Part shown: piece by piece, positions 28,411-31,039 of the stretch
Layout: each line of letters starts with the position of its first letter
How positions within the stretch are numbered: the stretch's first letter is position 1
NCBI GenBank assembly: GCA_963817285.1
Contig: CAWFOE010000029.1
Location: 6,209-70,208 of the forward strand
From: an uncultured Pseudomonadota bacterium
GTDB lineage: Bacteria > Pseudomonadota > Gammaproteobacteria > Natronospirales > REEB76
DNA: 64,000 bases
Direction: 5' to 3'
Made by a program: the position numbers and the translations under genes
The notes under the pieces: model-generated
Told to the model about the DNA's origin: nothing
Database searches by the model: none
What the model saw: the letters and a program-made list of their open reading frames with translations, nothing else

Positions 28411-29642
28411 GCGGCACATCCACCGCTGCTGAATACGATCTTCTGATAGTCGGTGGCGGTCTTGTAGGGGCAAGTCTGGCCGCTGCCCTCGCACCCTTGC
28501 CGCTGCGCATCGCGGTGGTGGAAGCGGTGGCCTTCGGCAACCTCAACCAACCGAGTTTCGATGACCGTATCACCGCCGTGTCCTACGGCAGCCGCCGCAT
28601 CTTCGAGAGCATGGGGCTCTGGTCCCGGCTCGCGGCGGAAGTGAATCCCATCCGCCATATCCATGTCTCGGACCGGGGCCGTTTCGGCGTGACCCGGCTC
28701 GATGCAGAAGAGGCCCGGGTGGATGCCTTAGGGTACGTGGTGCCCAACCGGGCCATCGGCCGGGCTTTAAGCGAGTTCATCGCCGCTCAGAAGAACATCG
28801 AGATGCTGGCGCCCGCCAAGCTCGAGTCTTTCACCTTGGGTGAGAGCGGCATCGAAGCCGTCATCGAGGCCAGCGGCAAACGCAGCCTCAAGGCCAAGCT
28901 CCTGGTGGCCGCCGATGGCGCCCGCTCGGAGGTGCGCAGCAAGCTCGGCATCAGTGGCGAGACCGTGGATTACGCCCAGACCGCCATCGTCTGCAATGTG
29001 CGGGTGGAGCACCCCCAAGCCGAGACTGCGTTTGAGCGCTTCGCCGACGACGGTCCCGTGGCGCTCCTGCCCATGGGCGGCGATCGCTATGGTTTCGTGT
29101 GGGTCGCCGCCACGGCGGACGCCCCTGCCCTCCTCGGATTGGATGACGAGACCTTCCGTGCCCAAGCCGCGGAGCGGTTCAACGGACGGCTCGGTCGCTT
29201 CACCGAATCAGGCAAGCGGGTGAGTTATCCCTTGAGCATGGTGCGGGCCAGCGCCCAGGTGCAGGGTCGCGCGCTCATCATCGGCAATGCCGCTCACAGC
29301 CTGCATCCCATCGCGGGCCAGGGCTTCAACCTCTCGCTGCGGGACGTGGCCATGCTGGCGGAAGTGCTCTCAGATGCGCGCCGTGATGGCGAGGACCTCG
29401 GCAGTAGCAGCGTGCTCGCGCGCTATGTGGAAGGGCGCAGTGGCGATCAGCAAGGCACGGCAGTGTTCACGGATCTGCTCAACCGGGTATTCGCCAATCC
29501 GCTCATGAGTGTCGCTCTCGGGCGGAACATGGGGCTGCTGGCGCTCGAACTCATGCCGCCGGCCCGGCGTGCGCTCATGCGGAAAAATATGGGCTTAGAT
29601 GGATGGCAACCTAAGCTTGCCCGTGGGTTACCGTTACGCTGA
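28407..29642 (+). CDS. ubiH: 2-octaprenyl-6-methoxyphenol hydroxylase (UbiH family FAD monooxygenase)
   Basis: DLLIVGGGLVGASLA FAD motif and GNAAHSLHPIAGQGFNLSLRD. The last ~24 codons are a low-GC recoded duplicate (see findings). Confidence 0.85.
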   Translation: MSGTSTAAEYDLLIVGGGLVGASLAAALAPLPLRIAVVEAVAFGNLNQPSFDDRITAVSYGSRRIFESMGLWSRLAAEVNPIRHIHVSDRGRFGVTRLDAEEARVDALGYVVPNRAIGRALSEFIAAQKNIEMLAPAKLESFTLGESGIEAVIEASGKRSLKAKLLVAADGARSEVRSKLGISGETVDYAQTAIVCNVRVEHPQAETAFERFADDGPVALLPMGGDRYGFVWVAATADAPALLGLDDETFRAQAAERFNGRLGRFTESGKRVSYPLSMVRASAQVQGRALIIGNAAHSLHPIAGQGFNLSLRDVAMLAEVLSDARRDGEDLGSSSVLARYVEGRSGDQQGTAVFTDLLNRVFANPLMSVALGRNMGLLALELMPPARRALMRKNMGLDGWQPKLARGLPLR

Positions 29643-29832
29643 TGTACAGATACCGCACTCGCTCCAGTCCGAAGCCTGAAAAGGTCTTCCTTGACCTTTT
29701 CAGGCTCGAAAATCGCGGAGTGAATCCGCGATTTTCTCCGCGTCCCGCGGCGGTAAGTCCCTTTACCGCGCTGCGCCACAACATGGGTCTCGGTGGGCGT
29801 CTGCCGAAACTCGCCCGCGGTCTGCCTCTGCC
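29643..29832 (+). repeat. hairpin insert plus displaced original ubiH 3' end
   Basis: Hairpins cctgaaaaggtc/gaccttttcagg (29675-29704) and gaaaatcgcgga/tccgcgattttc (29708-29736). Nt 29768-29836 encode ALRHNMGLGGRLPKLARGLPLP*, which duplicates the ubiH C-terminus. Confidence 0.7.
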
Positions 29833-31039
29833 ATGAAATACGATTTCGATCTCATCATCGTGGGCGGCGGTGTCGTGGGTGCCACACTCGCCTGCGCACT
29901 CAAAGACAGCGGACTCTCCATTGCACTTCTGGATGCACAAGAACCGAAATCCTTCGATGCGAAAGCCGAAGTGGATCTCAGGGTATTCGCTCTTTCTATT
30001 TCCAGCCGGCGCATCCTGCAGGCAGTAGGGGCCTGGGAGGCCGTGGCCGCCGCGCGCATCTCACCCTATCGGGACATGCGGGTATGGGATTCGGAAGGCG
30101 AGGGCAGCATCCATTTCGACAGCGCGGCTTTGGGCGAACCTGAGCTGGGCTACATCGCGGAGAACCGGCTCCTGCAGCATGCCCTTTGGGCGAAGCTCAG
30201 GGATCAGCGTCAGGTATCGCTGCTGTATCCGGCCCAACCGGAAGCCCTCAGCATCACGGATGAAGGTGCGACCCTCAGCGTGAGCGGTGGTAGGCGTCTC
30301 AACGCCAAGCTCGTGGTGGCGGCGGACGGCGCCGCCTCCGCGACGCGCGGTCTCGCGGGTATCGAGGCGGAGAACGAACCCTACGGGCAGCGGGCGGTGG
30401 TGGCCCATGTGCGTACCGAGCTGCCGCACCAGGCTACCGCCTGGCAGCGCTTCATGCCCACGGGGCCCCTGGCCTTCCTGCCGCTGGCAGACGGGCGGGT
30501 CTCGGTGGTGTGGTCAGCGGATGAGGCGGAAGCCACGCGCATCATGGCTCTCGACGATGCTGCTTTCTGCGCCGCGCTGACGGAGGCGAGTGCATCCCGC
30601 TTGGGCCAAGTGCAGAACACCACACCCCGGCTCGCTTTCCCGCTCCAGAAGCTGCATGCCCGGGAGTATGTGCGCCCCCGTTTTGCTCTGGCGGGGGACG
30701 CTGCCCATGCGGTGCACCCGCTGGCGGGGCAGGGAGTGAACCTAGGATTGCTGGATGCGGCGACGCTAGCGGAAGTGATCACCGATGCCGATACAGCGTG
30801 GACGCGACATCGGCGATCACGGCGTACTGCGTCGCTACGAACGTTGGCGGAAGGGTGACAATCTCGCGATGATTGTCGCGCTAGACGGCTTTAAACGGCT
30901 TTTCAGCAACGATATTGCACCACTACCTCAGCTGCGCAACGCAGGATTACGCGCTGTAGAGCGTTTTACGCCGCTTAAACACGCTTTTGTGCGCCATGCC
31001 ATGGGTTTGAGCGGTGATTTGCCGACTTTGGCGCGCTGA
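29833..31039 (+). pseudogene. ubiI: UbiI/VisC-type FAD-dependent ubiquinone hydroxylase, frameshift near 30790
   Basis: DLIIVGGGVVGATLA and GDAAHAVHPLAGQGVNLGLLD. The C-terminus continues in ORF 30785..31039 (...YERWRKGDNLAMIVALDGFKRLF). Confidence 0.8.

Follow-up and report, generated by a model that had tools for sequence, protein, structure and literature searches.

The ubiH gene in a 64,000-nt stretch of DNA from an uncultured gammaproteobacterium (contig CAWFOE010000029.1, positions 6,209 to 70,208; the whole stretch is hereafter called the window) has two 3' ends. A recoded copy is in use and a second copy lies displaced downstream, next to the start of a ubiI/visC-like gene. We consider it probable, though well short of certain, that the arrangement arose by a 194-nt lateral insertion consisting of a donor ubiH end, a spacer and a hairpin module, which was joined at a short stretch of identity and is bridged by an open reading frame (ORF), the relay ORF, that would rescue the coupling of the two genes. 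The insertion history is well supported, the coupling mechanism is plausible from the sequence, and no mobilising enzyme was found in the insert or beside it.

The two 3' ends of ubiH

28407..29642, + strand: ubiH coding sequence as now used (ORF; 411 amino acids), the last 20-24 codons being read as foreign
29571..29642, + strand: replacement, foreign low-GC ubiH 3' end, ALMRKNMGLDGWQPKLARGLPLR followed by the stop
29777..29836, + strand: displaced native ubiH 3' end, with homology possibly from 29768; its stop overlaps the ubiI ATG

The product of ubiH scored above the cut-off of the NCBIfam UbiH equivalogs (439.8 and 421.5 bits). In the form now in use its C-terminus is ...ALMRKNMGLDGWQPKLARGLPLR, with the stop at 29642. 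The second end (29768-29836), 125 nt past that stop, translates as ALRHNMGLGGRLPKLARGLPLP and a stop codon; this TGA (29834-29836) shares bases with the start codon (ATG, 29833) of the downstream hydroxylase gene. The ORFs therefore bear out an earlier reading made from the sequence alone (the sequence-only reading), which had proposed that the ubiH 3' end is duplicated, that a recoded copy is in use and that the second stop overlaps the start of ubiI.

The same reading had described the copies as alike in protein and different at synonymous sites, with a low-GC active copy and a GC-rich displaced one, and both descriptions hold. Over 23 aligned codons the same residue is encoded at 18 positions but an identical codon is used at only 4; there are 14 synonymous and 5 non-synonymous differences, one codon is missing and the nucleotide identity in the codon alignment is 62%. 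The active end has a GC content of 52.8% and a GC content at third codon positions (GC3) of 50%, compared with 68.1% and 65% for the displaced copy and 65.7% and 79% for the remainder of ubiH. Nothing comparable exists elsewhere in the window: when all six frames were scanned (127,870 positions), at least 10 of 21 shared residues were reached only in the two copies themselves. Furthermore, the region of ubiH and the insert is identical in two independent assemblies, L137 (ENA ERZ25039518) and L138 (Logan ERR10755945), and the arrangement is therefore not an assembly artefact. For annotation, such loci yield a hidden C-terminal pseudogene and a chimeric gene end, which standard pipelines overlook.

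The origin of each end was analyzed by comparison with relatives. A protein search with UbiH returned thousands of homologs, of which the best 120 were listed and examined. The closest homolog among these 120, P0003 (92% amino acid identity; loci L001 and L002), has no insert. In both loci the ubiH stop overlaps the ubiI ATG (ccATGA), the same overlap as that of the displaced copy, and the C-terminus of P0003, ...RHNMGLGGRLPKLARGLPLP, equals the displaced copy over 20 residues. P0008 (L003) and P0015 (L011) are insert-free too, with an ATGA junction as in L001. Nucleotide identity was then compared over the 600 nt upstream of the last 72 nt of ubiH, over the last 72 nt and over the displaced 64 nt. 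In the upstream 600 nt the window is 87% identical to L001, 76% to L008 and 75% to L135, while over the last 72 nt the corresponding values are 66%, 86% and 84%. The displaced 64 nt match the native end of L001 at 57 positions (89%) and the window's own active copy at 39 (61%). This switch in identity between L001 and the insert-bearing relatives therefore indicates that the copy in use came from elsewhere and that the displaced copy is ancestral. The sequence-only reading had likewise taken the displaced copy for the original end: in the junction aligned across relatives, the closest insert-free relative ends ubiH like the displaced copy and not in the low-GC version.

The ends attached to the insert are constantly low in GC3 (50-58%, versus 79-88% upstream). 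In the clade comprising L008, L135, L140, L141 and L142, a donor-type end containing RKNMGLDG is as conserved as the gene bodies. Because this low-GC3 end looks native or long-resident there, the clade is the likely source of the window's foreign ubiH end, as judged from sequence comparison. Displaced ubiH remnants in L008, L135, L140 and L006 are just 13-20 nt long, compared with 64 nt in the window. Proteins ending in RKNMGLDG...PLT and a stop (P0023 and P0061) have a plain ATGA junction; a C-terminus of ...PLR and a stop was predicted to mark an insert, which was confirmed for P0016. The possibility was considered that the insert-free RKNMGLDG ends (L003, L141 and L142; low GC3) are excision scars. 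Against this, the ends in the L008/L141/L142 clade are no more similar than the gene bodies. The insert-free RKNMGLDG ends may instead be native in that clade and the source of the foreign end in the window.

Borders of the insert and proposed route of entry

29583..29776, + strand: inserted DNA, absent from the empty site of L001, the closest relative (194 nt; global alignment)
29643..29663, + strand: spacer of the ubiH-type insert, TGTRCARATACCGCAYTCGCT (8-copy alignment; absent from the pepP-ubiH copy of the module)

The synonymous differences tell donor from recipient DNA at the level of single nucleotides, so that the points of crossover, the direction in which DNA was transferred and the later decay are readable at this locus. 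In the global alignment, window 29400-29582 corresponds to L001 3994-4176 and window 29777-29950 to L001 4177-4350. The borders are ambiguous by about 12 nt (left 29571-29582, right 29765-29776) because a short imperfect repeat, GCGCT(CAT)GCG, sits at both; it reads GCGCTCATGCG on the left, and GCGCT, a 3-nt gap and GCG on the right. The sequence-only reading had quoted ggctcga/aaatcgcgg and cggcggt/aagtcc as the junctions. Alignment to the empty site placed these elsewhere, at borders between hairpins inside the module. Of the 194 nt, 60 are ubiH coding sequence from the donor, 21 form a spacer of the same origin, 106 make up the module and 7 lie at the right border. The insert is thus read as laterally acquired DNA lying within the final 20 or so codons of ubiH.

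Up to GCTCATGCGG the sequence is that of the recipient; foreign DNA follows, and recipient sequence resumes from CACAAC... with the full native end. The junction sequences suggest that the donor segment joined the recipient at this 9-12-nt identity (GCTCATGCGG). A small circle could have recombined there by a single crossover, or the segment could have been joined illegitimately, anchored by homology, at the TGCG microhomology. Either kind of joining would push the native end downstream intact rather than replace it; a double crossover would have swapped the native end out. The type sequence of the empty-site allele is …CTCATGCGGCACAACATGGG…, and that of the putative circle or tandem junction of the insert would be TTTACCGCGCTCATGCGGAAAAAT.

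The ORF and family scan of the window revealed no recombinase encoded within or beside the insert, and the segment had no match in plasmid, phage or viral collections. A pseudo-T-loop in ubiH (window GCTCGA^ACTC, 29545-29555) was considered as a target and dropped because the corresponding site reads CTGGAACTC or ATGGAACTC in L006, L008 and L135. A trans-acting integrase is rendered less likely by the imperfect junction repeat, the variable length of the displaced copy and the copy of the module at the pepP-ubiH junction that lacks a gene end.

A four-hairpin module found in three genomic contexts

29664..29769, + strand: conserved four-hairpin module, CCAGTCC...TTTACCGC (about 106 nt; multiple alignment)
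29673..29706, + strand: hairpin 1, a perfect inverted repeat with a 14-bp stem and the loop TTCCTT (2 compensated pairs)
29708..29736, + strand: hairpin 2, 12-bp stem GAAAATCGCGGA/TCCGCGATTTTC, a stem also found in tRNA-linked repeats
29739..29749, + strand: hairpin 3, CGCG-TCC-CGCG (from the fold), variable or expanded elsewhere
29750..29769, + strand: hairpin 4, GCGGTAAG-TCCC-TTTACCGC, the right end of the module, kept in all copies

Two strong hairpins had been noticed between the ubiH copies in the sequence-only reading. The two perfect ones are indeed present (29673-29706, 14 bp; 29708-29736, 12 bp), but the fold has four. The fold of the intervening sequence has a z score of -7.4 (RNA) or -7.5 (DNA), and none of 200 shuffles folded as well. 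In an alignment of seven sequences, 96.5% of the pair cells are paired and compensatory changes occur in 4 pairs (8 cells), a level reached in 0 of 500 shuffles and absent from slid controls. One pair of hairpin 2 changes from A:T to G:C in three of the seven sequences; hairpin 3 shows a C:G to T:A compensation and is expanded in L132. A hairpin inside the foreign coding end, which has three different stems (window, L135 and L006/L008), was also considered as a case of structural conservation. This claim was dropped because native ends fold about equally well.

The module is 88-95% identical between hosts whose ubiH genes are 75-83% identical. All searches together yielded only 14 loci, 12 of which have the module between ubiH and ubiI; an exact-pattern scan of metagenomes gave 4 contigs. 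At ubiH-ubiI the module occurs in L006-L010, L133-L135, L137, L138 and L140, and no fewer than six lineages besides that of the window have it there. The carriers there include P0012 (75% amino acid identity; L006 and L007), P0025 (74%; L008-L010) and P0016 (L140), together with three metagenome contigs, L133-L135. A pattern count over all retrieved loci revealed a second site, between pepP and ubiH in L142, and in L132 the module has a third context, in front of a bTHX-like gene. Its orientation relative to the flanking genes is the same in all three contexts. Within three host clades the insert is both present and absent: window (present) and L001 (absent); L006 and L133 (present) and L003 (absent); L008, L135 and L140 (present) and L011 and L141 (absent). 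Occurrence in three genomic contexts therefore argues for a low-copy miniature mobile repeat of an uncultured clade of Gammaproteobacteria, lodged at the tightly packed pepP-ubiH-ubiI junctions.

In L142, pepP retains the native end MQRRLL and a stop, as in L011 and L141, and no gene end is replaced. The module there (40-190) is flanked on both sides by AGTCCA, possibly a short target duplication. The sequence-only reading had suggested that the element supplies a replacement gene end. In the window a foreign end is in use, but the L142 module brings none, which makes it more plausible that the replacement end is donor flank that came in with the module.

Smaller elements were seen at two related loci. 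In L006 (3836-3915) an element consisting of CTT-hairpin-AAG and then CCAGGGCCCAC... is nested exactly after the GGCGGTA of the ubiH module, and in L005 (3675-3742) a similar one follows ...TTCGGCGGTA directly behind the ubiH stop, at the break of the contig. Secondary insertions seem to favour the GTA^ position.

An open reading frame bridges the insert

29640..29644, + strand: TGATG, in which the ubiH stop overlaps the start of the relay ORF
29642..29836, + strand: relay ORF, 64 codons, running through the insert and the displaced copy to the TGA that overlaps the ubiI ATG
29833..31039, + strand: downstream hydroxylase gene, ubiI/visC-like, of the UbiH/UbiF/VisC/COQ6 family (ORFs 29833..30858 and 30785..31039)

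The reading frame shows that UbiH is terminated by the borrowed end. The T(G/A)ATG at this stop is kept in all complete copies (window, L006, L008, L133, L135 and L140), and the relay frame is open in five of the five complete copies tested, ending between -10 and +7 nt from the ubiI ATG. The other two frames across the insert contain 1-3 stops. Moreover, the relay ORF survives a frame-changing 2-nt deletion in L135 and an 80-nt nested insert in L006. L142 has a comparable ORF, in another frame, that spans the module and stops at a TGA overlapping the ubiH ATG. The relay ORF has no protein family match.

A consensus scan predicted neither a terminator nor a promoter on the sense strand of the window insert. 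Because no sense-strand terminator is predicted, transcription from ubiH would be expected to read through the insert. Ribosomes would then start on TGATG, translate the hairpins and the displaced end, and stop at the original ATGA. In this way the relay ORF would restore the translational coupling of ubiH and ubiI that the insertion otherwise broke. That the relay ORF preserves the coupling is plausible, as far as the sequence goes. The locus shows how a 194-nt insertion between translationally coupled genes of an essential pathway can be tolerated: the borrowed end keeps UbiH whole and the insert-spanning ORF could pass ribosomes to ubiI.

The ubiI/visC-like gene itself is split in the window by an extra C at 30788 (window GATGCCGATAC, L137 GATGCGATAC). 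The L137 counterpart is intact and encodes 401 amino acids. The frameshift is either an assembly error or a strain-level change.

Relation to tRNA-linked repeats

10414..10600, + strand: repeat unit after tRNA-Gln (model R1, 80 bits)
48662..48900, + strand: repeat unit after tRNA-Ser, with a variant core (model R1, 20 bits, E = 0.001)
55673..56100, + strand: two tandem repeat units after tRNA-Arg (first unit, model R1, 84 bits)

The tRNA-associated inserts of the window are tRNA-linked repeats (TLRs). TLRs have been known in E. coli since 1978; a mechanism of spread is lacking, as is a function for most of them (PMC8144298). In E. coli, 22 TLRs occur at ten loci, their last 18-19 bp being the 3' end of the upstream tRNA or rRNA gene, and the rrnA/B/D members bind Hfq and CsrA in vitro (PMC8144298). 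The E. coli TLRs used for comparison are the 178-bp repeats of tyrT/tyrV (rtT/RttR RNA, Rfam RF00391) and the inter-terminator repeats of rrnA/B/D (the RrA/B/F small RNAs, sRNAs).

All three tRNA genes of the window (Gln, Ser and Arg) carry repeat units behind them, each with a duplicated gene end. The order behind the tRNA is a terminator, the reverse complement of the T-arm/acceptor 3' strand, GGTTCGA, the core, GTA, and the displaced tRNA 3' end from ATCC. The cores are 75-95 nt long with four hairpins. The second tRNA-Arg unit has a different core type, inverted relative to the tRNA-Ser core (55-nt inverted match, 93%). A covariance model, R1, was built from 36 TLR cores of metagenome-assembled genomes (MAGs). 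In E. coli, R1 scored 61.3 bits (E = 2e-18) on the rrnB T1-T2 repeat and 19-34 bits (E = 5e-5 to 2e-9) on the four tyrT units, and the tyrT/tyrV locus has the same layout as the tRNA inserts of the window. A scan of a genome collection found the core behind tRNA genes of many gammaproteobacterial MAGs, typically 43-92 nt past the tRNA and often in tandem.

The sequence-only reading had regarded the ubiH insert as the same kind of element, and part of this claim stands. The ubiH module also has the hairpin TCGA + AAAATCGC/GCGATTTT, of which the window has 3 copies where 0.01 are expected, and the GTAA(N)TCC tail. It consists of several tandem hairpins in the layout of new gene end, hairpins and old gene end, and the 13-20-nt ubiH remnants of other hosts resemble the 18-19-nt repeats of TLRs. 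This resemblance in layout is real. However, the target is a protein gene and the nearest tRNA is more than 18 kb away; the ubiH gene-end copies are 62% identical, whereas those of TLRs are identical; the two middle hairpins of TLR cores and the reverse-complement piece of the target are missing; and the relay ORF has no TLR counterpart. Additionally, the GGA-rich strand of the module is antisense to the host gene, while in TLRs it is sense (GGA 2-5 times sense and once antisense in TLR controls, once sense and 7 times antisense in the ubiH module). With R1 the ubiH module of the window scored only 11.4 bits on the + strand and 13.0 bits on the - strand, other copies scored 10-15 bits (E = 0.04-1.4), and Rfam gave no RtT match at E <= 10. 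Low scores of this order, together with the L142 copy that has no gene end, are the part of the comparison that speaks against a common kind. The module can be placed in the same broad class of GGA/TCC-looped hairpin repeats as the TLRs, and a related hairpin module in a protein gene is informative beyond tRNA targets.

Several ideas on the origin of the TLR units were also considered. A role of the reverse-complement piece as a primer-binding site was rejected because the piece stops short of the CCA end. To our knowledge, none of the analogies of integron attC, Xer/dif, IS200/IS605 and IS91 fits the motifs of the TLR core, and no gene of the integron attC, Xer/dif, IS200/IS605 or IS91 type was found near it. 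Cargo-bearing variants (L025, L075 and L130) contain small ORFs, among which no recombinase was obvious by eye, without a scan of these ORFs against a family library. A search for an autonomous partner found nothing in viral contigs, phages or plasmids.

A second TLR arrangement occurs in L048, L099, L127, L121, L122, L063 and L116. Here the core splits the T-loop of an otherwise complete tRNA copy upstream, and behind it come a decayed 3' fragment, a duplicated promoter region and an intact tRNA. In L017, L112 and L121, cores lie head to tail with no tRNA sequence between them, and the core ends are CAAAATCGC...GAG(T/C)A.

Alternative explanations

The possibility that the ubiH end was duplicated locally in tandem and then diverged, or that the assembly is chimeric, is effectively refuted. 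The same 23 codons do occur twice, 125-197 nt apart. However, the copies differ at 14 of the 18 conserved codons, each is closer to the end of another genome than to its own partner, the sequence is identical in two independent assemblies, and at least 11 further contigs (JGI, ENA and Logan) carry this insert. An ancient insertion inherited vertically across the clade, lost from the insert-free lineages and with a displaced copy refreshed by gene conversion with an insert-free allele, is improbable. It would account for the module identities, which rank like the hosts (the window is closer to L006 and L133 than to L008 and L135, and L008 and L135 are the closest pair), and for RKNMGLDG-type ends that are about as similar as the gene bodies in L008, L135, L140, L141 and L142. 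The last 72 nt of ubiH nevertheless switch affinity, from 87% to 66% with the sister L001 and from 76% to 86% with L008, and lateral input into the window lineage is therefore required. Vertical descent would also need at least three independent precise losses, each restoring the ATGA overlap, and the module is present at another junction, pepP-ubiH. We attach a similarly low probability to a dedicated site-specific integrative element, or an attP-sized remnant of one, whose attachment site holds the ubiH 3' end and whose integrase acts in trans, as with prophage e14 or phage 21 in icd. Its architecture would be that of icd-e14-icdC, in which the gene continues into the element and a C-terminal pseudogene is found on its other side (PMC13626634). 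Empty sites in relatives, a borrowed end in use with the native end displaced, a short repeat at both junctions and a size of 194 nt, about that of an attP, all agree with such an element; GCGCTCATGCGG would be the candidate integrase site. Moreover, the L135 remnant after TTTACCGC retains CTCAT, so that old copies could share a start position across hosts. No integrase was found, however, in the insert, whose only ORF is the relay ORF, or nearby, and collections of phages, plasmids and viruses contain no match. A 3-nt gap makes the junction repeat imperfect, displaced copies are of very unequal length (64 nt in the window, 13-20 nt elsewhere), and the pepP-ubiH copy of the module has no gene-end copy at all.

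A further explanation, compatible with the insertion history, concerns the opposite strand. The module may be the gene of a Csr/Rsm-type sRNA that sequesters CsrA/RsmA, with the complement of the recoded, A/T-rich ubiH end supplying the terminator hairpin and U-tract, which would explain why that end is carried along; we regard this as unlikely. The antisense strand of window 29667-29772 matches RsmW at 33.1 bits (E = 5e-4), below the gathering threshold of 52, and that of L007 reaches 51.4 bits (E = 6e-6) against the same threshold; antisense L140 matches RsmV at 29.1 bits (E = 8e-5) and antisense L132 matches RsmW at 27.2 bits. The GGA motifs, 7 antisense against 1 sense, lie in the loops of hairpins 1, 3 and 4 (P about 0.02-0.03 by shuffling) and also in linkers, and are conserved in other module copies. 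A terminator-like hairpin with a T-run is called at 29593..29616 on the - strand (consensus scan), inside the foreign ubiH end, with an equivalent in L135, and the insert starts exactly at that T-run (AAAAAT, 29583). The 80-nt nested insert of L006 brings another AGGA-looped hairpin on the same strand. Furthermore, the genome encodes CsrA (csrA at 47980-48183, NCBIfam equivalog, 113 bits), and the related rrnB repeat RNA binds CsrA in vitro (PMC8144298). On the other hand, no sigma-70-like promoter was found on the antisense strand in four loci, nor any conserved motif upstream of it, the upstream DNA being host-specific ubiI antisense sequence. L006 and L008 gave no antisense terminator call, and every Rfam Rsm score is below gathering (for L140, RsmV 29.1 against 100); at gathering thresholds Rfam had nothing over the insert or over the TLR cores. 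The orientation to the flanking genes is the same in all three contexts, which points to a constraint on the sense strand, and a wobble-pair test gave no strand preference (3 G:T against 4 A:C). Compared with the known Rsm/Csr sponge sRNAs (RsmW, RsmV and RsmX/Y/Z; Rfam clan CL00106), the module is alike in its four hairpins with GGA in three loops; it differs in that its GGA strand is antisense to an operon, in its sub-gathering scores, in having no visible promoter and in a terminator that is inconsistent between copies. If this antisense reading is true, the module would be a mobile route for the spread of CsrA-titrating RNAs.

The lateral insertion with a relay ORF, which we prefer, also faces observations that weigh against it. 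ORFs of 50-70 codons are not unusual in GC-rich DNA and the copies are homologous, and the relay ORF is therefore only suggestive. In L008, hairpin 4 and a T-rich run are flagged as terminator-like on the sense strand, which opposes read-through there. The right junction lacks the 3 nt (ATG) expected from a clean single crossover. No recombinase, transposase or circular junction was seen, so that the integration route is read from the two junction sequences only. The word mobile stands on three contexts and only 14 loci; the distances between module copies roughly follow those of the hosts, so that vertical descent with losses could explain part of the distribution. Finally, given the low R1 scores and the lack of an RtT match, membership in the TLRs is not established.

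Comparison with known systems

In the e14 element of E. coli icd, the element provides a substitute 3' end with many synonymous differences and the original fragment stays as a pseudogene; loss of e14 recombines the two icd end copies (PMC13626634). At ubiH, the end is likewise borrowed and in use, with the native C-terminal fragment downstream. The two differ in that e14 is about 15 kb long and carries an integrase and an excisionase, whereas the ubiH insert has 194 nt and no such gene; that the ubiH junction repeat is short and imperfect; and that the gene downstream of ubiH was translationally coupled and an ORF bridges the insert. The use of a borrowed end with displacement of the native one is thus the known design of icd/e14/icdC, here reduced to 194 nt and free of an integrase. 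A structured repeat followed by a copy of a gene 3' end is the known design of TLRs, here in a protein gene and with diverged copies. Neither design includes anything like the bridging ORF.

Small hairpin repeats without ORFs, the repetitive extragenic palindromic (REP) and bacterial interspersed mosaic elements (BIMEs) and the miniature inverted-repeat transposable elements (MITEs), lie between operon genes and can change the stability or expression of the flanking cistrons. The ubiH module is likewise a small hairpin repeat lodged within an operon. Unlike them it has no terminal inverted repeats or REP pairs but four different hairpins, it is very low in copy number (one in 64 kb and three contexts in all data searched), and it is accompanied by donor coding sequence. 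In addition, Paquin, Laforest and Lang are said to have described in 1994 a hybrid atp6 gene in the mitochondria of Allomyces macrogynus, with a mobile ORF and a C-terminal duplication. That case is reportedly similar in that a foreign C-terminal segment is used and the original is displaced behind a mobile insert, and different in that the insert encodes an endonuclease and the system is mitochondrial.

A more speculative reading, to which only a small probability is assigned, would join the TLRs and the ubiH module into one class of mobile CsrA-sponge RNA modules that settle in gene ends and keep or bring a working end. The ubiH copy would then be the case of a protein target with the module in antisense, the recoded end would double as the sRNA terminator and the relay ORF would be kept for coupling.

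Other features of the window and of related loci

Several further observations concern small inserts near tRNA genes. Upstream of two tRNA genes the 5' end is duplicated as well, with one extra copy for tRNA-Gln and two for tRNA-Ser (window 10179-10340 and 48331-48567). These duplicated ends are broken in the D-loop by inserts of about 100-130 nt ending CCAGGGATGG...TTAGAAGA, with a promoter-like AT-rich stretch, which suggests a second family of small inserts that replaces the tRNA 5' end and promoter. The csrA gene (47980-48183) lies directly upstream of the tRNA-Ser gene that bears both 5' and 3' repeat units, and L063 has the same order of csrA, tRNA-Ser and repeat. In the repeat cores two loops contain GGA, and the cores share homology with the RrB RNA of E. 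coli, which binds CsrA.

At 10600-12260 the window contains an AT-rich islet of about 1.6 kb with two small ORFs (125 and 165 amino acids). Its left border is the displaced tRNA-Gln 3' end (10577-10600), and its right border is a Ser-type repeat core with a further tRNA-Gln-like 3' end (aaccctagccccccag, about 12245). The islet is read as a cargo-carrying version of the TLR-type unit, without an integrase. A lone tRNA-Arg-like 3' end (ccgagcgcgcca) with a terminator, and no tRNA gene upstream, is present at 60871-60923 and is 72% like 56086-56138.

In L037, L056, L057, L064 and L089 an unrelated alphaproteobacterial repeat (GGGGAGGTCGACAAAATCGCGCAGCGATTTTTCGGGTGGGGG) carries the same TCGA(C)AAAATCGC-loop-GCGATTTT hairpin, which suggests that different repeat families have this hairpin in common as a module or a protein-binding site. 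The 6S RNA gene (ssrS) was located at 25614-25799 on the - strand (95.9 bits), in its usual zapA-ssrS-ygfA neighbourhood, upstream of ygfB-pepP-ubiH.

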